A DNA stretch of 64,000 bases. It comes from Acidimicrobiales bacterium. Lineage in GTDB: Bacteria; Actinomycetota; Acidimicrobiia; Acidimicrobiales; Aldehydirespiratoraceae. Of this stretch, positions 840 through 42,576 are shown piece after piece (positions within the stretch are counted from its first letter, which is position 1; each line of letters opens with the position of its first letter). The translations under genes and the position numbers were made by a program. The notes beneath the pieces are model-generated. The model did no database searches. It saw nothing but the letters and a program-made list of their open reading frames with translations, and was not told where the DNA came from. The stretch covers positions 2,965 to 66,964 of the forward strand of contig JBDNJK010000084.1 of NCBI GenBank assembly GCA_041687805.1, written 5' to 3'.

Positions 840-1790
840 CTAGCGGACCATGGCCGCGATGGCCGGGGCATCAGACTCGATCAGATTGATCTGCTCCATA
901 CGATCGCCGAAGCGGGTCGCATCACCAATGTCTTTGGCGTAGGTCGCCTTGCGACGTGCAACCCGGCCGGTCACTTCGCCCGGATCAGAAGTTCGACCCA
1001 TGTACTGCGACTCAAGCCCTTCCTTGAGCATGAGCAACGACTCCGACCGAAGCTGAGAGATTCTCGACTCTGTCACACCGAGAAACTCGGCCAAGTCCTG
1101 TGAGGATCGACCTTCGAGGAAGTAACCGATGACCACCGTGCGGTGACGCTCAGGAAGCAGCGAGATGGCATCTCTGAGGTAGGAATGAAGTTCACGAGTC
1201 TCGAGTTCTTCGGACGGCTCGACGGCGCAATGATCGACCAACACGTCGACGAGCGTGAGGTCCTTCTCGACCCCATCGGAAGTCTCATGTTCGAGAGCAA
1301 GTACGACACTTTTAAACATGCGATCCTGCAGACGATGCAGTTCGTCGCTATTCATTCCGAGGGCCTCAGCTATTTCTTCCTTGCTCGGAATACGACCGAG
1401 TTGAGTGGCGAGGCTCTGCTCGGTGTTTTCGAGCTTGCGAGCGAGGTTGCGCACCGAGCGGGGCGCCCAGTCGGCGGCCCGCACTGAGTCGAGAATGGCA
1501 CCGCGAATACGCTGAGCGGCGAAACGTTCGAATGGCACACCGCGGCTCGCGTCGTAGCGACGAGCCGCCTCTACCAAGCCAAGTGCACCGGCTCGGGCGA
1601 GATCGTCACGGTCCACGTGACGGGGAAAGTGAACCGCCACCTGAAACACAACGTGCTTCACCAGCGGAAGGTTGGCTTCGATCATCTCGGCCAATTCTGG
1701 CTCAATCGAACCTGCGCCGGATTGCGGCCTCTGGTTCGTTCGCTGAGCTCTGCGCCCTCTGACTGGTTTAACCGTGTCGCCCTTGTTCAT
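840..1790 (-). CDS. FliA/WhiG-family (sigma-28) RNA polymerase sigma factor
   Basis: GLVEAARRYD...F..FA..RIRGAILD.VR..DW.PRSVR (region 2) and LGVTESRISQL (region 4). Confidence 0.9.
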   Translation of the reverse strand: MNKGDTVKPVRGRRAQRTNQRPQSGAGSIEPELAEMIEANLPLVKHVVFQVAVHFPRHVDRDDLARAGALGLVEAARRYDASRGVPFERFAAQRIRGAILDSVRAADWAPRSVRNLARKLENTEQSLATQLGRIPSKEEIAEALGMNSDELHRLQDRMFKSVVLALEHETSDGVEKDLTLVDVLVDHCAVEPSEELETRELHSYLRDAISLLPERHRTVVIGYFLEGRSSQDLAEFLGVTESRISQLRSESLLMLKEGLESQYMGRTSDPGEVTGRVARRKATYAKDIGDATRFGDRMEQINLIESDAPAIAAMVR

Positions 1791-1859
1791 CGCCCTGATG
1801 TCTTCCTGTTAGTGCCGGGGCTCGGACTCCATTTGTTCGAGCTTCTAGCAGCGACGGAT

Positions 1860-1887
1860 ACTTCGGCAGGTTCTGAACTCGACTTTA
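1860..1887 (-). promoter_or_regulatory. Putative sigma-28 promoter upstream of the sigma-28 gene itself
   Basis: Minus strand reads TAAA-N16-GCCGAAGT, matching the FliA/WhiG consensus, 70 bp upstream of the ATG. Confidence 0.6.
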
Positions 1888-1931
1888 GAGATTCGTCGAA
1901 AAAGATCTCAAAACCCTTGAATAGGCGGATA

Positions 1932-2921
1932 TCAGGTGAAGATCGACAAACCCTCGAACTTCATGGCGTGCAGCCCACGGGCACGAAGATCACGCAGCAT
2001 GAGTAGCGGCTGGTCGACCTCAGCCAACCCATACGCTCCCGGGCCGCACCGTCCTGCCAGCACATGAACGGCCGCAGTCGCAGCAACCGCTCCAGTGGCC
2101 ACCGCAGGCCGATCTACCGCGCCAGTCACAGACACTCGCCGTTCATTACCGATCAGGCCACGGATCTCGACGCGAACAGCTCCCGTGCCACCCTCAGGAT
2201 GCGGCTTCCAGAGCATCGGGAGAGGCGAAGTCAGACGATCGCGGCGTGTCGCCGAAACTCTCGCCGTCACTCTCGACACCCTCGGGAACGCCGGAACCAG
2301 CAGGAGTGCGTCGGGCAGTCCGCCGCGATAGCAATCGCGTCCTCCGATCGGATCAGGGAACCACACCAACTCTCGCCCCGACCCACCCGGGCGACGCTTC
2401 CAACGCCCATCTCTCCAGTCGACGCTGCTCGAACTCAACGCCCGGTGATGCTGACGAGCACAGGCCGGCCCACCCGCACCGACCTTGGCCACGTGAATTT
2501 CTTCGACCTTGTCGAACTCCGCGGCACCGTGGCGAGCCAGTAGACAGCTCATGCCGGGCATGAAACCCGCGCCCACCAGCACCGGAACGCCGTGATACCT
2601 CGCCTCTTGGTCGATGGCCAACAACCGGCGGACTTCCGACAGATCGTCAGACGTTGCGACCGCCGGAATGCCGGCTTCGACAGCCATGCGCACCCAACGC
2701 AGTTGAGTTCCTGAAGGGGTGGCAACGATCACCACTGCTACGTCCGGGTTGATCCCAGATGCATGGCCGGCCTCGACTCCAGCCCCCAACGATCTTGCAA
2801 CTCTGCCCGTCCGATCCTGATTTGAATCGAAAATCTCGACAGTCGAAACCCCTGGCGATGATCGAAGCTGACGAGCTATTCGAGCTCCAGTCGCTCCCGC
2901 GCCCACCACCATCACCCTCAT
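1932..2921 (-). CDS. NAD(P)-binding oxidoreductase, saccharopine dehydrogenase-like
   Basis: N-terminal Rossmann motif VVGAGATG; GAGFMPG segment. Confidence 0.65.
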   Translation of the reverse strand: MRVMVVGAGATGARIARQLRSSPGVSTVEIFDSNQDRTGRVARSLGAGVEAGHASGINPDVAVVIVATPSGTQLRWVRMAVEAGIPAVATSDDLSEVRRLLAIDQEARYHGVPVLVGAGFMPGMSCLLARHGAAEFDKVEEIHVAKVGAGGPACARQHHRALSSSSVDWRDGRWKRRPGGSGRELVWFPDPIGGRDCYRGGLPDALLLVPAFPRVSRVTARVSATRRDRLTSPLPMLWKPHPEGGTGAVRVEIRGLIGNERRVSVTGAVDRPAVATGAVAATAAVHVLAGRCGPGAYGLAEVDQPLLMLRDLRARGLHAMKFEGLSIFT

Positions 2922-2941
2922 GTCGGAGTCACCTCAGCCAC

Positions 2942-3094
2942 TCAGCGCAGATCTTCGCCACGGAGCTCGCGCCAACCGCCAGTTTGGGGCGGCACGCCGC
3001 CGCCTCCCCGCACGCGAATAGCCGCCGCCACAGCAATACCGGCTCCAATGGCCACAACACTGCGACGAATCAGAGTAACCAGTCCACCACCCAT
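2942..3094 (-). CDS. Small (50 aa) single-TM hypothetical protein
   Basis: GGAGG RBS before the ATG at 3094; hydrophobic VVAIGAGIAVAAAI; co-oriented with its neighbours. Confidence 0.55.
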   Translation of the reverse strand: MGGGLVTLIRRSVVAIGAGIAVAAAIRVRGGGGVPPQTGGWRELRGEDLR

Positions 3095-3135
3095 GGTTTC
3101 CTCCGGTTGGTCGGGGTAACTCAGCACACGGAACG

Positions 3136-3209
<74 letters not shown>

Positions 3210-3223
3210 GTGAGGCGATCACG

Positions 3224-4042
3224 CTACCGGTCGTCGGTGGTGGTCGCCACCTCCGGATCGTCATCTCCAACGAAGTCTCCGGGCATTGGGATCGAGCTCG
3301 TCGACGCCGCTGGGAGCGGTGTTTCGGCCTCCGGCTGAGCTGGAGCCGCGGTCGGCTCGTTGCCCTGGGCAACCGAGCGCCTCAGCAGGCCAGGACGAGG
3401 CCTGAGACGCTTCGGCCTAGGACGAGCAGTCTCCTCTTCGACGACAGTGAGACGAATGCCGCCGGTGACGTCGCTGATGAGATTGAAAAGCACGGCCATG
3501 AGCACTGTGAACCCCGCTCCGGCGACGACGAGAACTAGGCCACCCACCGCGCTGGCGCGAAAGATCTGATCAGCGTTGAAGGCAAAACTGTCGAGCGCGA
3601 AGAGCTTCTGGATGAAGTTCTCGATGTTGTCGATGGTGCCCGACCCAACGGCCAGGCTCCAGAGGATCACACCGGCGATGAGAATGATTCCCCACAAACA
3701 GAAATAGAAGATGAGCGACATCTTCAACACCGACCAAGGCTCGATATGGCGAACCAAGCGGCGTACGCGCCTGGCGCGAAGCTTTCCGGCCATGTGCCGA
3801 TCAATGAGCGCGGGTCGCGATACGGCGGCGACCTTGACCACCGGCACCGCTACGGGTGCGGGCACGTCGGCAACTGGCGGGACCTTTTTGACTGGATCTG
3901 GTTCATCAGATTCATCCAAAGAATCACCAGATGCCGGAGGCATGACCCAGTCATCGCCGGTTGCCGTCCGGAACAGTTCTTCTTCTTGCTCGGGCAGGTT
4001 CGTCATCACTCGCGTTCGGCCGACCTCAGGCGGGTCTGGCAC
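3224..4042 (-). CDS. DUF3566-type membrane protein
   Basis: RHIEPWSVLKMS and LFNLISDVTGGI motifs, TM helices, conserved position after gyrA. Start placed at a GTG 6 nt after a TACACT -10 (leaderless). Confidence 0.8.
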   Translation of the reverse strand: MPDPPEVGRTRVMTNLPEQEEELFRTATGDDWVMPPASGDSLDESDEPDPVKKVPPVADVPAPVAVPVVKVAAVSRPALIDRHMAGKLRARRVRRLVRHIEPWSVLKMSLIFYFCLWGIILIAGVILWSLAVGSGTIDNIENFIQKLFALDSFAFNADQIFRASAVGGLVLVVAGAGFTVLMAVLFNLISDVTGGIRLTVVEEETARPRPKRLRPRPGLLRRSVAQGNEPTAAPAQPEAETPLPAASTSSIPMPGDFVGDDDPEVATTTDDR

Positions 4043-4118
4043 ACCGCGAGTGTATGCCACAGCGACCAGCGGGCCTCCTCACCGGGTCGGTGAGACCATC
4101 ACGCGATGGGTGGACGCC

Positions 4119-18310: not shown

Positions 18311-19190
18311 CGGTCTCGGCAAAGGTCTGAGCTCTCTCATTCCGGCTGATTTGGAGGGGGAAGGGGCCGTATACCGTGAGCTCGATATCGATTCGGTGGT
18401 CCCCAACAGGTACCAGCCGCGCGAACACTTCGACGAGGAGTCACTCAGTTCACTTGCTGCGTCGATCTCCGAGATAGGCGTAATCCAACCGATCGTGGTT
18501 CGTGAAGCCGACGGCGGCGGATACGAACTGATAGCGGGGGAGAGGCGGTGGCGCGCGGCGCGACGTGCCGGCATTCCTTCGATCCCGGCTTTGATACGTG
18601 GGGTCGATGATCTTGCCAGCCTGGAGACGGCGGTCGTCGAGAACCTGCATCGTCAAGATCTCAACGCACTTGAGGAGGCCTCGGCTTATCAACAGCTGAT
18701 CGAAGATTTCGGCCTTACCCAAGATTCCGTGTCCAAGAGGGTCGGTAGATCGCGTTCTGCGGTGGCCAACTCGATTCGTTTGCTACAACTACCTCCGTTG
18801 GTGCAGCAGTTGGTGATTGAATCCCAGATCTCGGCGGGACACGCACGGGCCCTGTTGGCCACACCGGATCGTGAACTACAGGAATCGATCGCCAAGAGGA
18901 TCGTTACCGAGAGTCTCACCGTACGACAGGTCGAGGAGCTGCTACGTGACGATGCCAGCGACCCGCAACCGGCAATTGAAATACCAGAAACGGATGACAA
19001 GCCACCCATACCGCGGGAGCTCCCAGAAGCTGGTGTGCTGGAATTGGAAGAACTTCTGTCTGCCCGGCTCGATACCAGGGTGAAAGTGAAGCTGGGGAAG
19101 GGCACCGGCCGACTGATGGTCGAGTTCGCCGATCTTGATGATCTGGAACGGATTTATCGAATTATCACTCCGCCAGGAACAGTCGTATAA
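18297..19190 (+). CDS. parB: Chromosome partitioning protein ParB
   Basis: GLGKGL, PNRYQPR, GERRWRA and ENLHRQDL motifs. Confidence 0.96.
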   Translation: MARRSGLGKGLSSLIPADLEGEGAVYRELDIDSVVPNRYQPREHFDEESLSSLAASISEIGVIQPIVVREADGGGYELIAGERRWRAARRAGIPSIPALIRGVDDLASLETAVVENLHRQDLNALEEASAYQQLIEDFGLTQDSVSKRVGRSRSAVANSIRLLQLPPLVQQLVIESQISAGHARALLATPDRELQESIAKRIVTESLTVRQVEELLRDDASDPQPAIEIPETDDKPPIPRELPEAGVLELEELLSARLDTRVKVKLGKGTGRLMVEFADLDDLERIYRIITPPGTVV

Positions 19191-27395: not shown

Positions 27396-28427
27396 GTGCT
27401 GTTGGTGGTGACTGACAAAAGATTCTTCGACCACGACTCGGGTCCGTCGCACCCGGAGAGACCGGAGCGACTCGCCGCCGCGCTCGACGGAATTGAGTTG
27501 GCCGGTGCCATCGAAGCCGTAGCCATGCGAACTCCCAGGATCGCTGACAGGGCCGAGATTATGGCCGTTCATGAGCTTGCGCTGGTTGAACAGATACGAG
27601 GTTTGGCCGCGGCGGGAGGTGGTCGAATTGATGCCGACACATCGATGGGCCCGGCCAGTTTCGACGCGGCGTGCCGAGCGGCTGGAGCGGTGTTGACTGC
27701 CGTGGAGGAGTTGTCGAACGACTCACCAGATCGGCTCGATGTCGACAGCGCCTACTGCGTGGTGCGACCCCCAGGGCATCACGCCACACCCGACGCGGCC
27801 ATGGGTTTTTGCCTGTTCAACTCGGTGGCTATTGCTGCACGGTCGCTCACGAGGTTGGGGCAGAAGGTGGCGATTGTCGATTTCGACGCTCACCACGGCA
27901 ACGGAACACAGGCTGCGTTCGTGGACGACCCGTCGGTCTTCTATACCTCGATCCATCAGTCGCGGCTATATCCCGGAACCGGTGGGGCATCGGAGATGGG
28001 CGCCGGGCCGGGCACCGGATTCACCATCAATGTCCCGTTGCCTGCGGGGGCCACCGGCGATGTCGCACTCATGGCGATCGACGACGTGATCGGGCCGGCG
28101 GTGGATGCCTTCAATCCGGATTGGATGCTCATCTCGGCTGGTTTCGACGGGCATCGCGATGATCCTCTGACCCAGCTGATGTTCAGCTCCGGCGACATCG
28201 CCGATTTTATGGCCAGGCTGATCGGGCTGGTCGGCCCGCGCCGCGTGGTGGCGGTGTTGGAAGGCGGCTACGACCTGGAGGCGATCAGGCGATCGTCGGC
28301 AGCGGTGGTTGGTTCGCTGGTCGGGAAGAGTTGCCGGCCTGAACCTTCTACATCGGGTGGTCCTGGCTCAGACGTCGTCGACTCCGTGAGGCGGCTGCGT
28401 CTCGATTGGCTGGACCGCTATGCCTGA
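27396..28427 (+). CDS. Histone deacetylase family (AcuC/APAH-like) amidohydrolase
   Basis: HPE.PERL, RPPGHHA, GFCLFN, DFDAHHGNGT, SAGFD and LEGGY motifs. Confidence 0.93.
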   Translation: MLLVVTDKRFFDHDSGPSHPERPERLAAALDGIELAGAIEAVAMRTPRIADRAEIMAVHELALVEQIRGLAAAGGGRIDADTSMGPASFDAACRAAGAVLTAVEELSNDSPDRLDVDSAYCVVRPPGHHATPDAAMGFCLFNSVAIAARSLTRLGQKVAIVDFDAHHGNGTQAAFVDDPSVFYTSIHQSRLYPGTGGASEMGAGPGTGFTINVPLPAGATGDVALMAIDDVIGPAVDAFNPDWMLISAGFDGHRDDPLTQLMFSSGDIADFMARLIGLVGPRRVVAVLEGGYDLEAIRRSSAAVVGSLVGKSCRPEPSTSGGPGSDVVDSVRRLRLDWLDRYA

Positions 28428-37246: not shown

Positions 37247-38605
<1,359 letters not shown>

Positions 38606-38654
38606 TCTGAGCCCTACCGTTAGGCGACCGACACCTTGGCTAGCGTCATGGTGG

Positions 38655-39359
38655 ATGAGTCGGGCCGTCAGAGTGATCGTGGGTGTGGTGCTCGGTTTTA
38701 TCGCGGCGCTATTGATCGGCTTGTTGTTCTTTTCTGGCGACTCATCGAAGGCACCGACGGTGTCAGAGGGTCGTCCCGTCGAGACAACGTTTCCTGCTGT
38801 CGATCACGACCCGACGGCTGCTGCCGATTTGGTCGTGACTTGGCAGGCGTGGCGGATGGGCACGTTTGTTGTCGATGGCACCTGGACTCGCACTCTTGAC
38901 TCTGGTGGGCCGCCGCTCAGCGGCGCGGTTCACATTGTGCAGAGTCCTCCCAGACGAGTTGTTGAGCGGCTGGGGTCGACCGTGGAATTGTTCGATGGCT
39001 CGGTTGCGGCATGTGACGCAAGTTCGGCCGACGAGGCGACTGCTCCTCCATGTGTGGCAGGAGAGAGCGGCCTCACGTATCAGCAGCGGATCGACGCTGA
39101 GTTGGCGTTGGTGCGTGGCTACGTGCAGGGCGATGAGCGGATCTACGACGTTGGGCGGGGACTGATATCAGGGTGTTTCCGAGCCGAGTTGGTGGTGACC
39201 ACGCTCGGGTCGCCGTGGGGGAGATGGGCCGAGTTTTGTTTCGACTCTGGATCTGGCGCGCTGCTGTCGAGCCGGATTCGTCGCCAGTCGGCGGTCGACG
39301 TGGAAGTCGATGCGGTGACCAACTCCGTGGTGACCGAGGCCGACTTTCCTGCTCGGTGA
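38655..39359 (+). CDS. Hypothetical membrane-anchored protein
   Basis: N-terminal TM helix; leaderless ATG 8 nt after TAGCGT. Confidence 0.6.
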   Translation: MSRAVRVIVGVVLGFIAALLIGLLFFSGDSSKAPTVSEGRPVETTFPAVDHDPTAAADLVVTWQAWRMGTFVVDGTWTRTLDSGGPPLSGAVHIVQSPPRRVVERLGSTVELFDGSVAACDASSADEATAPPCVAGESGLTYQQRIDAELALVRGYVQGDERIYDVGRGLISGCFRAELVVTTLGSPWGRWAEFCFDSGSGALLSSRIRRQSAVDVEVDAVTNSVVTEADFPAR

Positions 39360-39376
39360 CCAACAAGGGGCTAGTT

Positions 39377-39502
39377 GAGAGGAGGCGGAGGTCGAATGAG
39401 TGCGCCAGCACCCTAGAAAAGTACTGGTAGCGATGTATTGGAGGGAGTATTCGACCCCCGCCCCTACTCTCTGTGCCTGGCGGGGGCGATTCCGCCAGGC
39501 TC
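39377..39502 (-). ncRNA. Putative sigma-28-dependent structured small RNA
   Basis: 9-bp 5' hairpin plus a 21-bp outer stem and 10-bp inner stem whose five mismatches are all G-U on the minus strand only; upstream CTCAA-N16-GCCGATAG. Confidence 0.6.
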
Positions 39503-39507
39503 TACCT

Positions 39508-39536
39508 CTATCGGCGCGCGCAGAGTGGTCGTTGAG
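39508..39536 (-). promoter_or_regulatory. Putative sigma-28 promoter for the sRNA
   Basis: Minus strand reads CTCAA-N16-GCCGATAG. Confidence 0.6.
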
Positions 39537-39588
39537 TAGATTTAGCGCATTGTTCGATAATTTGGTTTTCCGCACGCGGAGGTGACGG

Positions 39589-39798
39589 GTGTTTCTTGGT
39601 CAAGATCTTCTGGTCTGGTTGGTATTGGCGATCGGTGGTGCCATGGCCGCCGGCAATTTGATGGCGCTCGTTCGGCCTCCTGAGAAGAGGATTGATGAGA
39701 CTGATCTGACGCGCGCACCGTTGGTTCGCAGCATCGTGTTCATCGTGGTGGGATCAGTTGCTTCGATCTGGGCGATTGCCAGCTTGATCAGCGGCTGA
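39589..39798 (+). CDS. Small 2-TM membrane protein
   Basis: GGAGGTGA RBS; two hydrophobic helices. Confidence 0.7.
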   Translation: MFLGQDLLVWLVLAIGGAMAAGNLMALVRPPEKRIDETDLTRAPLVRSIVFIVVGSVASIWAIASLISG

Positions 39799-39834
39799 GA
39801 TTCCGAGCGACTGAGAAATCGGTCGCGAGAACGT

Positions 39835-40593
39835 TCAGGTTCCCCATTTGGGTTGCCGCTTGTCGTTGAACGCAGCGGCTGCCTCGATGTAGTCGTCCTC
39901 ACCCATCATTTGGTTGAGGCGATGGTTGGCGTCATTCACCGATGAGGCGGGGTCGAGGCTGATCGTGTCGAGTGCGATTTGGCGTTTCGTGGCTCGAAGG
40001 GAGTTGGGGCTCACATTGGCGACGATGCTGTCGGCGTATTCGAGTGCTTCGTCGAGAGTTCGCCCAGCGGTGGTCACCCGGTTGACCAGGCCGATGAGGC
40101 GCGGAAGCAGCCACGAGAGGCCGAATTCGGCGGGCAGGTTGAGCCTGCCGTGGGCAGTCGTGAACTTTGCTCCGTCGACGGCGAAGCGAACGTCGCACCA
40201 GCAGGCGAGTGCCAGACCGACGCCAGCCACACCTCCGTTGATCGCCGCGATGGTCATCGTTTCGAGGCCGAGGAAATAGCTGAAGTCGGCGTCAAATTCC
40301 GATCTGATTCCGTAGCCGGGGTTGGCGAGGTCGGGCGGCGTGCCGGGGTCGTAGCCGCCGCGCTCGGCATGGCCGCTCAGGGCCTTACCGTCGGCGCCGG
40401 GGCAGAACGTGCGCCCGGCGGGGTCTCCGGTTATCACCACGATTCTCACCGAAGCGTCGTTCTCGGCGCGTTCAAGACAATGGCGCACCTCGGTGTGCAT
40501 GCGGCCGGTCCAGGCGTTGTGGCGTTGGGGTCGAGAGAGCGTGATTATCGCGACTTGGTAGCGGGACTCGAATTGTGTCGTGTGAAGGTCCAC
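39835..40593 (-). CDS. Enoyl-CoA hydratase/isomerase, apparently with an internal in-frame deletion (possible pseudogene)
   Basis: TL.RP...NA, FC.GAD and AAING..AG.G motifs; LLPRLIG runs directly into LVNRV. Confidence 0.75.
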   Translation of the reverse strand: MDLHTTQFESRYQVAIITLSRPQRHNAWTGRMHTEVRHCLERAENDASVRIVVITGDPAGRTFCPGADGKALSGHAERGGYDPGTPPDLANPGYGIRSEFDADFSYFLGLETMTIAAINGGVAGVGLALACWCDVRFAVDGAKFTTAHGRLNLPAEFGLSWLLPRLIGLVNRVTTAGRTLDEALEYADSIVANVSPNSLRATKRQIALDTISLDPASSVNDANHRLNQMMGEDDYIEAAAAFNDKRQPKWGT

Positions 40594-40659
40594 TTTGATC
40601 TCGCGGGTTGATGGGGGTGCCGGTTTTCTGCGCGCATCGAGACGTTAGGGTGCCCCACG

Positions 40660-42576
40660 ATGTTGAGTCGTGTTGGTCGTGATGTGTGGCGCTCCGTCGT
40701 GGTTTGTTCGGTCATGCTCGCGTCACTGATTCCCTTGGCATCGCCTGTCGCGGCTCAAACGCATTTGCAGCTTCACAACACCGACTTGGTGGTCAACGCC
40801 GCAACTCATTTCGATGTCGATCCAGCTGCCGGGGTCGTGGCGGTACACACCGACTACCTGCTGTCGAACACCTCAACGGAGCAACGACTCACCGAGTTCG
40901 ACGAGTTGCTTCTCGATGTTGCCAGTGATGTGTCTGCTACGTCACGAGGCCAGACACTGGACGTCTTGAGGATTGGAGCCGCTGACGGACTGGCGACTTG
41001 GAGGATCCAGCTGCCATCGGCGTTGCGGCCTGGACGCGATGTCGAGCTCAGTCTCACATGGTCGATAGCCGGCGGCGACCCGGCAAGTGGTGCGTATGAA
41101 ACGCTCATCAATGCTGCGTACGTCTCGTTTCCTGTGGTGGCGGTCGGCGGGCCGGGGGGCGAACACTCAGTGGACGTCACCCTTCCGCGGGGGTTTCGGA
41201 TAGTTGATGCGCCAGGGTTGACATCCACCCCAAGCTCCGATGCGGTAGTGCTCTCCGACTCCGGGTCGCTCGACACGTATGCGCCCGTCACCGTGGTAGC
41301 GACGAATCCCTCGGCTCTGGTGCCCCGTCGGGTCGCTGATTTGGATGTGGCTGTCGACCTTCTTGGTTGGCCGGGCGATGCCAAATGGGCAAACGAAGTG
41401 ACAGATGCTGTCGGCACAATTTTCCCGCAGCTCACCGAATGGCTTGGTATGTCACCGGTGGAGACACTCGAAATTCGCGAGGGGTCGCCCGATATCTACC
41501 CCGAACTGACTCCCGGGATGGTGGTGGAAGGCGGAACGTCATTGCTGGTCGATTGGTCACCGGACCTTGGCCTGCTGGGGCGGCAGCTCGCTGCCGTGTG
41601 GCTCAACGGATCACTTCCGGAGATCGATTGGGTTGCTGCGGCCGCCGCCGATGTCTTGGGCACCAGGGCAGCTCAGGTGTTCGATCCGCTCGTCGAGGGT
41701 CCTGCCGCGGACGCTGCGGATTCCAATGCCGTGGCATACGGAGTCGTCGACTCGCTGGTGGGTGAGATTGGGGAGAGTGAATTCTCGCAGGTCATGTCCT
41801 TAGTCGCGGACGGTGCCTTTACCTATCCTGGCCCGGGAGCCGAGACAATTGGACCGTTACCTGTCGACTGGCGAACACTTCTCGACAACTTGGAGGGCGT
41901 CGGTGGCAGCACGCAGGCGGCAAATCTGTTTCGTCGCATCGAGACCGATCCAGCACACTTGTCGGCTCTCGACAAGAGGGATTCGGCCCTGATCGACCTT
42001 CAGTCATTGGAAGATCTGGCTTCTGGTTGGGCGCTCCCGATATGGATTCGCCTGCCCTTGGCCAGGTGGGACTTTGGCACGTTCGAGGCCCGCCTGCCTG
42101 TCATTGAAAATACGTTGTCTCAGCGAGACGCTCTCAGCGACGAGGCTCTGGCTGCGGAAATCGATCTCGGTGATTTCGTCAGAGTCGCGTTTGAGAGTGA
42201 GTCGCACGGAATGACCGTCACTGATGCGGCCATTGCCGATCAAGTGTCGGCGCTTGATCGAATAGTTGAGGCTGAGCGTGTAGTCGATTCGAATTCCGGC
42301 TTGATCTCTTGGATCGGACTCATAGGAACCGATGTCGCCGCCAAACAATCAGGGATCCGTGCTTCGTTCGAGTCGGGCTCGTTCGACACGACTCGTGAGT
42401 TGTCCGACGACTTGGTCTCCACGATTGAGGGGTCCAATGCCGCGGGAGTCTTGCGGGTGTTCATACCTGGCGCGATCTTGCTGCTTGTCGGGTTGGGTGC
42501 TGGAGATCTGGTGAGGCGCCGACAGGGACGGTCAGGCAGCGCTGCTGTCGAAGAGATGAGAGAATCGGGTACGTAG
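40660..42576 (+). CDS. Secreted/membrane-anchored protein with a degenerate gluzincin-like (M1/MA peptidase) fold
   Basis: Signal peptide, beta-rich N-terminal domain, C-terminal TM helix; no HExxH. Confidence 0.55.
   Translation: MLSRVGRDVWRSVVVCSVMLASLIPLASPVAAQTHLQLHNTDLVVNAATHFDVDPAAGVVAVHTDYLLSNTSTEQRLTEFDELLLDVASDVSATSRGQTLDVLRIGAADGLATWRIQLPSALRPGRDVELSLTWSIAGGDPASGAYETLINAAYVSFPVVAVGGPGGEHSVDVTLPRGFRIVDAPGLTSTPSSDAVVLSDSGSLDTYAPVTVVATNPSALVPRRVADLDVAVDLLGWPGDAKWANEVTDAVGTIFPQLTEWLGMSPVETLEIREGSPDIYPELTPGMVVEGGTSLLVDWSPDLGLLGRQLAAVWLNGSLPEIDWVAAAAADVLGTRAAQVFDPLVEGPAADAADSNAVAYGVVDSLVGEIGESEFSQVMSLVADGAFTYPGPGAETIGPLPVDWRTLLDNLEGVGGSTQAANLFRRIETDPAHLSALDKRDSALIDLQSLEDLASGWALPIWIRLPLARWDFGTFEARLPVIENTLSQRDALSDEALAAEIDLGDFVRVAFESESHGMTVTDAAIADQVSALDRIVEAERVVDSNSGLISWIGLIGTDVAAKQSGIRASFESGSFDTTRELSDDLVSTIEGSNAAGVLRVFIPGAILLLVGLGAGDLVRRRQGRSGSAAVEEMRESGT

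Follow-up and report, generated by a model that had tools for sequence, protein, structure and literature searches.

A putative small RNA family of the Acidimicrobiales behind a conserved FliA/WhiG-type promoter

The locus and its predicted fold

The window, that is the whole stretch of 64,000 nucleotides that was analysed, contains an intergenic gap of 229 bp between two plus-strand ORFs (stop at 39359, start at 39589), in which a putative small RNA gene lies on the minus strand (Table 1). A promoter motif, a short hairpin and a long hairpin had been placed in this gap by an earlier, sequence-only reading; the gap and all three elements were found again at the same positions. The locus gives a full-length match to the covariance model built for the RNA, R1 (137.2 bits, E = 3.3e-25).

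Table 1 Features of the small RNA locus and genes discussed with it (window coordinates)
Feature	Position	Strand	Remarks
FliA/WhiG-family sigma factor gene	840..1790	-	encodes 316 aa; distance to the RNA 38 kb; candidate sigma
Convergent gene	38655..39359	+	234-aa membrane-anchored protein; no Pfam/NCBIfam family
Small RNA gene (putative)	39372..39503	-	covariance-model limits, 131 model positions
Outer stem, 3' arm	39377..39397	-	followed by a C/U-rich tail, no U-tract; 18 nt to the convergent stop codon
Apical stem-loop	39405..39427	-	10-bp inner stem here (39427-39418 with 39414-39405)
Internal loop, 5' side	39428..39448	-	single-stranded ACUCCCUCCAAUACAUCGCUA; unpaired in the MFE structure; proposed seed
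Outer stem, 5' arm	39449..39471	-	pairs with 39377-39397 in the MFE structure (21 bp, 2-nt bulge)
Hairpin 1	39475..39500	-	perfect 9-bp stem, 8-nt loop AAUCGCCC (39491-39484)
Predicted 5' end of the RNA	about 39499-39503	-	expected 5-9 nt downstream of the -10 element
-10 element	39508..39515	-	GCCGATAG; 16-nt spacer from the -35; family consensus GCCGAT(A/G)
-35 element	39532..39536	-	CTCAA; family consensus cgCTCAAG
Divergent gene	39589..39798	+	conserved 69-aa protein; two predicted membrane helices, no family

The minus strand folds with -67.4 kcal/mol (z = -5.98), and none of 200 shuffled sequences was as stable; for the plus strand the values are -63.3 kcal/mol and z = -3.66, with one shuffle as stable. 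The minus-strand MFE structure consists of 42 pairs, five of which are G-U and read A-C on the opposite strand, as had been remarked from the sequence. In this structure the 5' side of the internal loop reads ACUCCCUCCAAUACAUC at 39448-39432, and the complete stretch 39428-39448 contains an anti-Shine-Dalgarno-like CUCCCUCC and a second UCGCC motif. A search for a U-tract terminator at the RNA locus came up empty on both strands, which leaves the 3' end of the RNA fixed no further than the base of the long hairpin at 39377.

Searched against Rfam 15 at the gathering threshold, the whole window yielded a tRNA at 3136-3209 and nothing else, in agreement with the earlier reading, which recognised no named family in the RNA. 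At E ≤ 10, the region 38000-41000 returned chance-level matches to PK-BYV (16.8 bits, with a gathering score of 50) and GlsR5 (13.9 bits, with a gathering score of 100). The RNA is present as a single copy in its own genome, in which the remaining sequence matches do not exceed 22 nt. One match of 18 nt on contig C93 was set aside as chance, being inside a plus-strand ORF and involving the variable stem of hairpin 1.

The product of the convergent gene was modelled with AF2 (mean pLDDT 86.7). With Foldseek the model matched LolA chains (E = 4.5e-7, target-normalised TM-scores up to 0.59), and the predicted fold resembles those of LolA, LprG and RseB. A role of this LolA-fold protein as an RsiG-like anti-sigma factor was considered and rejected, as inspection by eye indicated few residues before the membrane helix and an extracytoplasmic, β-rich domain. 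For the divergent gene, a tblastn match to the 69-aa ORF was obtained in 79 loci. In five of five genomes that lack the RNA, this ORF is present and directly follows dnaB. In 62 distinct sequences upstream of the ORF no conserved complementarity to the RNA was found, which discards the ORF as a conserved target. A type I toxin-antitoxin pair formed with this ORF was rejected on the same absence of conserved upstream complementarity and on the persistence of the ORF in all five genomes without the RNA.

Distribution, covariation and conserved loops of the RNA family

Of the 151 Acidimicrobiales genomes searched, 36 gave full-length matches to R1. In a sample of the class, eight of 151 genomes were positive, all eight belonging to the Acidimicrobiales and none to other orders, and in a sample of the phylum the own genome was the only one among 151 (0 of 150 others). 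Assembled genome contigs contributed 46 matches in 43 of the 80 loci listed, and the titles of the matching loci mostly name Acidimicrobiales, Acidimicrobiia or Microthrixaceae; metagenomes contributed 91 matches, which cover all 80 contigs listed. Relatives carry one to three copies of the RNA, all at one locus. Multiple copies, in tandem, are limited to one family of the order, the RNA being single-copy elsewhere, own genome included. In the tandem arrays the extra copies sit beyond the 69-aa ORF, each with its own promoter. The many scattered copies per genome that characterize a dispersed repeat of the REP or MITE type were not found, and the sequence-only reading was right in not treating the element as a repeat.

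Judged by titles, the literature on Acidimicrobiales sRNAs holds nothing on such an RNA, and the main text of an ncRNA discovery paper covering 50 genomes mentions neither Acidimicrobiia, Actinobacteria nor dnaB (PMC11109978). By these comparisons, the putative RNA represents a family not described before, which within the sampling is confined to the Acidimicrobiales.

Covariation was examined in three alignments: A1, with 36 sequences aligned by plain MAFFT; A2, with 63 matches; and A4, with 91 metagenome matches. A2 and A4 were fitted to the model and are therefore biased towards the modelled structure. All three helices covary, with about 96% of the cells paired as against 38-50% in controls with slid partners. 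In A1, 95.8% of the cells were paired (38.9-48.1% with partners slid), and double-sided changes occurred in 15 of 33 pairs, a number reached by none of 500 shuffles. The proportion of paired cells was 95.6% in A2 and 96.0% in A4, with double-sided changes in 30 and 23 of the 33 pairs, respectively. Such changes affect eight (A1) or all (A2) of the nine pairs of helix 1, 14 (A2) or all (A4) of the 15 modelled pairs of the outer stem, and all seven pairs modelled across the family for the apical stem (helix 4, A2). The apical stem-loop is invariant in close relatives, and is maintained by compensatory changes in distant members. The discrete, structured minus-strand RNA gene that had been proposed is thus strongly supported by covariation. 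Insertions and deletions of lengths not divisible by three, as well as the covarying stems, argue against a coding role. G-U pairs are frequent at several positions of A2 (e.g. GU:33, UG:29). Because these pairs favour it, the minus strand is taken as the folded one, and it is also the strand that carries the promoter in nearly all copies.

The loops show the opposite pattern to the stems. The core UCGCC(C) of the hairpin-1 loop is nearly invariant. The internal loop has the family consensus ACUCCCUCCAACGCAUCGCCA; in the 63 matches, its UCCCUCCA and CGCAUCGC reach a conservation of at least 95%, in contrast to the variable stems on either side. UCGCCC and CUCCCUCCA..CGCAUCGC, both C-rich and single-stranded, show almost no variation. 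Conservation of the exposed loop, which the sequence-only reading had put forward as a check, was borne out, CUCCCUCC and the C-rich hairpin-1 loop being the most conserved unpaired parts.

The promoter and the co-occurring sigma factor gene

The motif TCAA-N15/16-GCCGATA occurs once in the window, at the RNA locus, where 0.06 occurrences are expected, and was seen in six of 100 shuffled windows. A further hit at window position 18676 (-) was rejected, since it lies inside plus-strand genes. The promoter was excluded from R1 and hence was not selected for by the search. It is nevertheless found upstream of the newly detected order-level matches as well, and the -10 element ends 4-6 nt ahead of model position 1, a fixed distance across the family. 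In 92 aligned family promoters, the C of the -35 TCAA is present in 83, its second A in 83 and the following G in 75; in the -10 element CG is invariant and A is found in 86. The two-block motif fits 92 of 97 distinct upstream sequences. Upstream of the metagenome matches it fits 75 of 82 sequences, against two of 82 in a control window placed 200 nt further upstream, and TCAA is present in 69 of these 75. The other seven misfit the motif (e.g. L315, L268), and in a few lineages the RNA lies behind a different, sigma-70-like promoter.

The consensus sequences given for WhiG promoters in a recent preprint are T(A/C)AA-N16-GCCGATAA for WhiG2 and CTCA-N16-17-GCCGA for WhiG1 (10.64898/2026.01.14.699351). 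The RNA promoter matches in both blocks and in the spacing. At least one of the two published queries is passed by 147 of 177 distinct upstream sequences, whereas 134 and 124 of 20,000 random 60-mers from the own genome pass (about 0.7%). Separately, T[AC]AA-N15-16-GCCGA (one mismatch tolerated outside CGA) is found in 143 of the 177 (65 with N16 alone), and the CTCA-N16-17 query in 113. The sigma-28/WhiG type assigned to the promoter from sequence was supported in that it is kept upstream of almost every copy though absent from the search model.

The same architecture is encountered at protein-coding genes. Among 19 upstream regions of flagellin genes in relatives, 10 have CCTCA(T/A)-N16-GCCGA at a constant position. 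In five relatives the strict motif gave 27 matches, against 15 for the reversed pattern; Pfam searches with 20 of the 27 downstream ORFs identified a PilB-like ATPase, two NIT-HAMP proteins, one GGDEF protein, one HD_5 protein, and others. In the own genome, matches to a promoter PWM are weakly enriched (7 against 2 at a score of at least 20; 138 against 76 at a score of at least 14) and the top ones are mostly inside coding frames. Two intergenic candidates precede genes for a PAS/GAF-GGDEF protein and a metallophosphoesterase, annotated by eye from their translations.

The sigma factor encoded at 840-1790 scores 206-207 bits with TIGR02479 (FliA_WhiG), above the cut-off of 189.6. It scores below the cut-off of the WhiG equivalog NF004935 (190.8 bits, cut-off 343). 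Among 61 relatives, the RNA is present in 27 of the 41 genomes with an above-cut-off TIGR02479 match and in none of the 20 without. When orthologs of at least 60% identity are counted, 26 of these relatives have both the RNA and the sigma factor gene, one has the RNA only, three the sigma gene only and 31 neither. In the order sample of 151 genomes, with an ortholog threshold of E ≤ 1e-70 and counts that ignore phylogeny, both are found in 32 genomes, the RNA only in four, the sigma gene only in 14 and neither in 101. One of the four RNA-only genomes (G101) is 99% complete, and the 14 sigma-only genomes include an unpublished one (G077), without which they are 13. Three sigma orthologs contain in-frame stops; two of them are in genomes without the RNA (G047, G110), which is not so for the third (G064). 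In most genomes, one conserved region near the origin contains both the RNA and the sigma gene, at a distance of 34-68 kb. Because the two loci are linked and the counts are not corrected for phylogeny, the association may in part be due to common ancestry.

Since several FliA/WhiG paralogues coexist, the sigma factor of this promoter cannot be assigned from its sequence alone. The one encoded at 840-1790 is the most likely reader, because its orthologs share the presence and absence of the RNA. The conserved promoter and the co-occurrence with this sigma gene together make the RNA a good candidate regulator in the programme of that sigma factor. The sigma-28 link drawn by the sequence-only reading stands in so far as the genome encodes a FliA/WhiG-family sigma factor whose ortholog co-occurs with the RNA; it has to be amended in that this is a paralogue distinct both from the flagellar-cluster copy and from the highest-scoring WhiG-like copy. 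A flagellar programme was too narrow a frame, as flagellin is found in nine of the 61 relatives and not in the own genome (80.6% complete).

Candidate role and alternative explanations

It is considered rather probable, with room left for other readings, that 39372-39503 (-) is a stand-alone sRNA gene with a FliA/WhiG-type promoter, trans-pairing seeds and a function as a layer of a WhiG-like regulon. A regulatory RNA of about 125-135 nt would be made from its own promoter, cTCAAG-N15/16-GCCGAT(A/G), presumably read by a FliA/WhiG-family sigma factor, most likely the paralogue at 840-1790. It is predicted to fold into a 5' hairpin and a long hairpin, with stems kept by compensatory changes. 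Candidate seeds are the UCGCCC of the hairpin-1 loop and the CUCCCUCCA..CGCAUCGCC of the internal loop, which could pair in trans with G-rich mRNA sequences, typically Shine-Dalgarno regions. The RNA would then act as a post-transcriptional layer on a WhiG-like lifestyle regulon comprising type IV pili, c-di-GMP turnover, signalling and, where present, flagella. A target scan of the own genome with the two loop regions as seeds gave nothing above the reversed-seed control: with the RNA's own opposite strand set aside, the top energies, -31.7 and -38.7 kcal/mol, fell inside or close to the range of the reversed seeds (-30.1 and -33.7 kcal/mol).

A bolder extension, which we regard as doubtful, is that the RNA, the LolA-fold protein and the third FliA/WhiG-type sigma paralogue form a co-inherited Acidimicrobiales module. 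The sRNA would be the most conserved direct target of the sigma factor and possibly its main output, and its anti-Shine-Dalgarno loops would shut down mRNAs at a lifestyle switch (pili, c-di-GMP, envelope). Such a module would be the first sigma-28-family regulon of the Actinomycetota acting chiefly through an RNA.

The LolA-fold gene is also central to an alternative in which the element acts in cis, as an antisense RNA and two-way terminator that ends the transcript of this gene, pairs perfectly with its 3' UTR and controls its stability, with no targets in trans. The two are close neighbours: in 57 loci the LolA-fold gene adjoins the RNA, in the window its stop codon is 18 nt from the base of the long hairpin, and in some relatives (L014, L015) RNA and gene abut. 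In five of five genomes without the RNA, the LolA-fold gene is absent too, both being missing between dnaB and the 69-aa ORF, so that gene and RNA seem to be gained and lost jointly. The plus strand, moreover, folds well too. However, a pure cis pair would leave the loops unconstrained, whereas they are nearly invariant order-wide while the stems change. The tandem extra copies beyond the 69-aa ORF are not antisense to the LolA-fold gene, every copy retains its own promoter, the G-U pairs point to folding of the minus strand, and a two-way terminator is at odds with a U-tract being found on neither strand. Action purely in cis is accordingly thought unlikely.

Near-invariance of the loops is, on the other hand, compatible with a protein-binding site as well, and a decoy RNA could titrate, through its UCGCC loops and the internal loop, an RNA-binding regulator or, like 6S RNA, the RNA polymerase holoenzyme. 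Hardly any variation is seen in about 25 nt of the internal loop and in the hairpin-1 loop, which both contain (A/U)UCGCC, and the target scan was empty. In outline, the long hairpin with its large internal loop is reminiscent of 6S RNA, and 6S RNA (RF00013) was detected in none of five genomes of the order. This silence of the 6S model says little, because it gave no match in an actinobacterial control genome either. Against a decoy, the RNA is absent from 115 of 151 genomes of the order, unlike the housekeeping 6S RNA; its length of about 130 nt and very asymmetric loop differ from the 6S architecture, with no 6S match at E ≤ 10; and no candidate partner protein was identified. We judge this explanation improbable.

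Least plausible, and held to be distinctly improbable, is a real RNA whose promoter is read by another sigma factor, of ECF type or of another group 3 class with a CGAT-containing -10 element, the FliA/WhiG link reflecting only ancestry and linkage: some actinobacterial ECF promoters do have CGAT-like -10 elements, the co-occurrence counts ignore phylogeny for loci 34-68 kb apart in one chromosome region, and there are exceptions both ways (four RNA-only and 14 sigma-only genomes). Against this, the promoter agrees with the published WhiG consensus in both blocks and in their spacing, and relatives have the same architecture ahead of flagellin genes, which are classical sigma-28 targets. The RNA is also absent from all 20 relatives that lack an above-cut-off FliA/WhiG match, and two of the three sigma orthologs with in-frame stops are in genomes without it.

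As a putative trans-acting sRNA of a WhiG-like regulon, the RNA can be compared with several known systems. Like it, 6C RNA (RF01066; B11 in mycobacteria) is actinobacterial, about 100 nt long, and has conserved C-rich unpaired loops on stable hairpins. The locus and promoter type of 6C differ from those of the Acidimicrobiales RNA. The C-rich loops of 6C are reported to pair with several mRNAs (PMC6486639). Unlike in 6C, the second C-rich stretch is not in a terminal loop here but belongs to the large internal loop of the long, bipartite hairpin. The 6C model had no match at E ≤ 10 in the region 38000-41000 and none at E ≤ 0.01 in 40 relatives, own genome included; a Corynebacterium glutamicum control was matched, below the cut-off. 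An identity with 6S or 6C RNA was rejected, as neither model gives support at the locus or in the relatives and genomes of the order searched, the 6S model being weak for the phylum.

The CiaR-dependent csRNAs of streptococci and the Qrr RNAs of vibrios are multi-copy, regulator-specific RNAs that share the same dedicated promoter and seed. The present family resembles them in its tandem or nearby paralogous copies with the same promoter and a conserved anti-Shine-Dalgarno-like seed; it differs in that multiple copies are found in only one family of the order, and there is no homology.

The sigma-28-dependent sRNAs of Escherichia coli reportedly are FliX, MotR, UhpU and FlgO. They are made under the flagellar sigma factor, derive from mRNA untranslated regions and feed back on the flagellar programme post-transcriptionally, as described for this proteobacterium (PMC10578931). 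The Acidimicrobiales RNA, in contrast, is predicted to be a stand-alone gene with its own promoter, with no known relation in sequence or structure, and most genomes that carry it show no flagellin.

The WhiG preprint (10.64898/2026.01.14.699351) predicts regulons of type IV pili, c-di-GMP enzymes and signalling, and the genes behind the motif in relatives of the present genome fall in the same functional classes. The search in that preprint covered at most 200 bp upstream of protein-gene start codons, and the terms 'sRNA', 'small RNA' and 'acidimicrob' have no occurrence in its main text (10.64898/2026.01.14.699351). As this putative family illustrates, RNA targets escape regulon predictions that are confined to the promoters of protein genes.

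Members of the Acidimicrobiales occur abundantly in lakes, soils, oceans and wastewater, and few have been cultured. By literature titles and Rfam, no regulatory RNA has been described for the order. The family presented here combines a clearly covarying structure with a defined promoter class, a candidate sigma factor and more than 170 distinct natural variants of the promoter, which are rarely available together. Two questions can thereby be put to a direct test: what the additional WhiG/FliA-type sigma factors control in non-sporulating, mostly non-flagellated actinobacteria, and whether that control has an RNA arm.

The stretch of DNA itself is present in two of the three listed DNA runs of one lake-water metagenome study.

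Structure and distribution of the RNA

Sequence comparison establishes a gene for a structured RNA, on the minus strand of the gap between the 234-aa and 69-aa ORFs. The promoter motif, both hairpins, the internal loop and the G-U bias claimed in a sequence-only reading were all found as placed. The minus strand folds at -67.4 kcal/mol (z -5.98; equalled by 0 of 200 shuffles), the plus strand at -63.3 kcal/mol (z -3.66). Five of the 42 pairs of the minimum-energy structure are G-U, which would be A-C mismatches on the opposite strand. In all 64 kb of the window, TCAA-N15/16-GCCGATA has one match, at this locus, versus 0.06 expected. No terminator for the RNA was found at the locus.

Features of the RNA locus, its neighbours and the candidate sigma factor
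Feature	Position	Strand	Remarks
Intergenic gap, 229 bp	between ORF end 39359 and ORF start 39589		houses all elements of the RNA locus, on the (-) strand
Promoter-like motif	CTCAA 39536-39532, 16 nt, GCCGATAG 39515-39508	-	
Hairpin 1	39500-39475	-	perfect 9-bp stem, loop AAUCGCCC
Long hairpin, outer stem	39471-39449 with 39397-39377	-	
Long hairpin, inner stem	39427-39418 with 39414-39405	-	
Large asymmetric internal loop, 5' side	39448-39432	-	ACUCCCUCCAAUACAUC
234-aa protein gene	38655-39359	+	N-terminal membrane helix, four invariant cysteines
69-aa ORF	39589-39798	+	two predicted membrane helices; no Pfam or NCBIfam family
FliA/WhiG-family sigma gene	840-1790	-	TIGR02479 206-207 bits, cut-off 189.6

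The RNA matches no known family: a search of the region against Rfam 15 (E ≤10) returned two chance-level matches and nothing else, and the whole window gave the tRNA alone at gathering thresholds. Nor is it a dispersed repeat, which the sequence-only reading had considered fatal to its proposal, as BLAST found one copy in its own genome (2.1 Mb in 124 contigs, 80.6% complete), the remaining matches being ≤22 nt. Among 60 relatives, BLAST homologs were present in 6 of 6 members of the genus, and beyond it in several genera of the same family and a few further families of the order; two or three copies are often clustered within a few hundred bases.

In A1, a MAFFT alignment of 36 copies with a consensus of three helices, 95.8% of the cells hold standard pairs, versus 38.9-48.1% after shifting the 3' partners by 1-3 columns. 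Both sides have changed at 15 of 33 pairs, and the observed values were reached by 0 of 500 column shuffles. A covariance model, R1, was built from the RNA alone, without upstream sequence. Full-length matches were obtained in 36 of 151 genomes sampled evenly from the order; the class sample gave 8 of 151, all 8 belonging to the same order, and the phylum sample of 151 gave the own genome only.

Two wider scans used a search pattern made from the conserved loops, stricter for metagenomes. At least 120 stretches were retrieved from 185,579 species genomes, with R1 matches in 43 of the 80 listed (46 matches), the titles of these loci being mostly Acidimicrobiales, Acidimicrobiia, Microthrixaceae or Acidimicrobiaceae; listed loci without R1 match were discarded as chance pattern matches in other phyla. 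The JGI metagenomes yielded 89 stretches, with R1 matches in all 80 listed (91 matches). Four loci with a full-length RNA in an Acidimicrobiales-type setting (L137, L089, L092, L098) come from MAGs titled Gammaproteobacteria, Acidobacteriota, Acidobacteria or Actinomyces, which points to mislabelled or mis-binned contigs.

The alignments fitted to R1 are 95.6% paired with both-side changes at 30 of 33 pairs (A2, 63 matches) and 96.0% paired with such changes at 23 of 33 (A4, 91 metagenome matches), figures less independent than those of A1 because model fitting favours the structure. The apical stem, invariant in close relatives, shows compensatory changes at 7 of 7 pairs in distant members (A2). 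The unchanging parts are single-stranded: UCGCC(C) in the hairpin-1 loop, and UCCCUCCA then CGCAUCGC in the internal loop. The search for homologs and covariation proposed with the sequence-only reading revealed a conserved, covarying family with constant loops.

Tandem paralogous copies, two or three, occur within one family of the order (L007, L008, L010-L019, L021), and tandem copies are also seen on metagenome contigs (L243, L246, L249, L256, L266, L281, L300, L303, L308, L309). Each has its own promoter, and some are interleaved with the 69-aa ORF. The RNA is present once in its own genome and in every genome outside that family.

Promoter and candidate sigma factor

Genome comparison associates the RNA, confined to one order in the genomes sampled, with a conserved sigma-28-family promoter and with one sigma paralogue. 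As R1 lacks upstream sequence, conservation of the promoter is an independent test. The same two blocks were found at the same distance upstream of the new order-level R1 matches, and the two-block pattern fits 92 of 97 distinct upstream sequences from genomes. The family consensus, cgCTCAAG, 15 or 16 nt (counted from TCAA) and GCCGAT(A/G), ends 4-6 nt before R1 model position 1. The search rules of a WhiG regulon study (exact -35; GCCGA with at most one mismatch, none inside CGA) are passed by 147 of 177 distinct RNA upstreams, versus 0.6-0.7% of random 60-mers from the own genome, which bears out the sigma-28/WhiG-type assignment. The consensuses presented in that preprint are T(A/C)AA-N16-GCCGATAA for WhiG2 and CTCA-N16-17-GCCGAACT for WhiG1 (10.64898/2026.01.14.699351). 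The separate promoter of every copy in tandem arrays argues for independent small transcription units and against a leader or riboswitch, as no gene lies downstream on that strand.

In the metagenome set, the pattern is present in 75 of 82 distinct upstreams, versus 2 of 82 for a control window lying 200 nt farther from the RNA. The 7 of 82 without it, some with a sigma-70-like promoter instead, count against the favoured reading, in which a FliA/WhiG-type holoenzyme would transcribe the RNA. At L315:2438-2573, L268:401-535, L056 and L061, a sigma-70-like TTGnnn-N17-nATACT replaces TCAAG/GCCGAT; such promoters in a few lineages suggest a change of regulator.

The sigma factor encoded in the window scores under the WhiG equivalog cut-off. 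Relatives hold up to three FliA/WhiG paralogues: one that scores about 270-286 bits, the window-gene ortholog (about 200 bits) and, in flagellated genomes, a third located in the flagellar cluster. Of 61 relatives, 41 have a FliA/WhiG match over the cut-off and 20 do not; the RNA occurs in 27 of the former and in 0 of the latter. Window-gene orthologs are set apart by a clean identity gap (≥60% versus ≤49%). In the 61 relatives, RNA and ortholog are both present in 26, the RNA alone in 1 (G041, 73% complete), the ortholog alone in 3 and neither in 31, these being raw counts of genomes not independent of one another. The corresponding numbers for the 151 genomes of the order are 32, 4 (73, 78, 87 and 99% complete), 14 (including G077, flagged as unpublished) and 101; the two samples are not independent because 25 genomes are shared (G000, G007, G017, G037-G045 and others). 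A caveat on the co-occurrence is that in most genomes sigma gene and RNA share one origin-proximal region, at a distance of 34-68 kb. It is possible that a different sigma factor reads the promoter. In G035, which has two RNA copies, the window-gene ortholog is the only FliA/WhiG paralogue. Orthologs with in-frame stop codons were seen in two genomes without the RNA (G047:C5:20212-21063, G110:C15:21944-22852) and in one with a weak RNA match (G064:C6:91911-92732).

Neighbouring genes and mode of action

The conserved order is dnaB, 234-aa ORF, RNA(s), 69-aa ORF. In 130 stored loci, many of them end-cut, tblastn found the 69-aa ORF in 79, the 234-aa ORF in 57 and dnaB in 37. In five genomes without the RNA, where R1 with filters off reached 9.5 bits at best, dnaB is directly followed by the 69-aa ORF, and the 234-aa protein was found at no place in the genome; presence and absence of RNA and 234-aa gene therefore appear to be linked. 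The 234-aa protein belongs to no Pfam or NCBIfam family. Its confidently predicted model (pLDDT 86.7) resembles the lipid-binding half-barrels LolA, LolB, LprG and RseB (Foldseek E 4.5e-7; target-normalised TM-scores mostly 0.33-0.59). One homolog, L021:2159-2755 (-), contains an in-frame stop codon.

The 69-aa ORF is kept beside dnaB across the order (79 loci) with or without the RNA, and is therefore a real small protein gene. A toxin-antitoxin pair was rejected on account of this independence and because no conserved RNA-complementary site was found in the regions upstream of the ORF. A sigma-70-like promoter facing it, TTGAGT-N18-GATAAT (39532-39561 (+); 9 of 12 matches, 0.1 expected), uses for its -35 hexamer the DNA that serves the RNA promoter as -35 on the opposite strand, so that the two divergent promoters could compete. 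Positions 840-4060 encode a 278-aa membrane protein, a tRNA, an oxidoreductase-like ORF and the sigma factor, which we take to resemble origin-proximal actinobacterial backbone; taken together with rpsR-rplI-dnaB at 36-38.6 kb, this stretch presumably puts the RNA close to the region of the replication origin.

It is presumed that the invariant C-rich loops pair in trans with G-rich mRNA segments, such as Shine-Dalgarno sequences. A seed scan of the own genome found no targets, which counts against this reading, as does the failure to find a terminator. The RNA could possibly be a protein-binding decoy. It could also serve the convergent LolA-fold gene as antisense RNA and terminator, but invariant loops on covarying stems are the pattern expected of a seed-bearing RNA, not of a purely cis-antisense element. 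The nearest functional analogues, to neither of which homology was found, are the sigma-28-dependent small RNAs described in E. coli (PMC10578931) and 6C RNA. In other actinobacteria, the C-rich loops of 6C RNA are reported to act in trans on mRNAs (PMC6486639), and the present RNA may resemble it in mode. Small RNAs and Acidimicrobiia are unmentioned in the main text of the WhiG regulon preprint (10.64898/2026.01.14.699351), and a literature search for 'Acidimicrobi' with 'sRNA' gave nothing relevant by title. As a gene, the locus is well supported: it represents a small RNA family that is new and has its own alternative-sigma promoter.

Other genes behind the same motif

Nine of the 61 relatives were found to have flagellin; in the own genome (80.6% complete) none was found. 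In 19 flagellin-upstream regions from nine genomes, each reaching about 45 nt into the gene, CCTCA(T/A)-N16-(G/C)CCGA lies at a constant place in 10, ending about 105-180 nt before the end of the region. Fourteen regions have motif matches on the sense strand and two on the antisense strand; four of the 14 were rejected as promoters, as they sit in the coding end of a preceding flagellin gene.

In five well-assembled relatives, the strict CTCAAG-N14/15-GCCGAT gave 27 matches versus 15 for the reversed pattern; some, inside long frames, may be chance. A Pfam scan of 20 of the 27 downstream ORFs, chosen by eye, included a PilB-like ATPase of type IV pili (start codon 9 nt past the -10 box), two NIT-HAMP sensors, a GGDEF cyclase, an HD_5 protein, a GAF protein, a cell-wall amidase and an ECF sigma factor; 9 of the 20 had no Pfam family. 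These functions agree with the classes that the preprint (10.64898/2026.01.14.699351) predicts for WhiG regulons in other parts of the phylum. Start codons 7-11 nt past the -10 box at L224, L231, L215, L233, L239 and L240, all from relatives, suggest leaderless mRNAs in this regulon. In the own genome, outside the window, an intergenic TCAAT-N..-GTCGATGA (G000:C101 (-), near 28285) is followed after about 10 nt by the start of a large protein with PAS/GAF and GGDEF-like segments, read by eye from the translation, possibly a sigma-28-type target tied to c-di-GMP.
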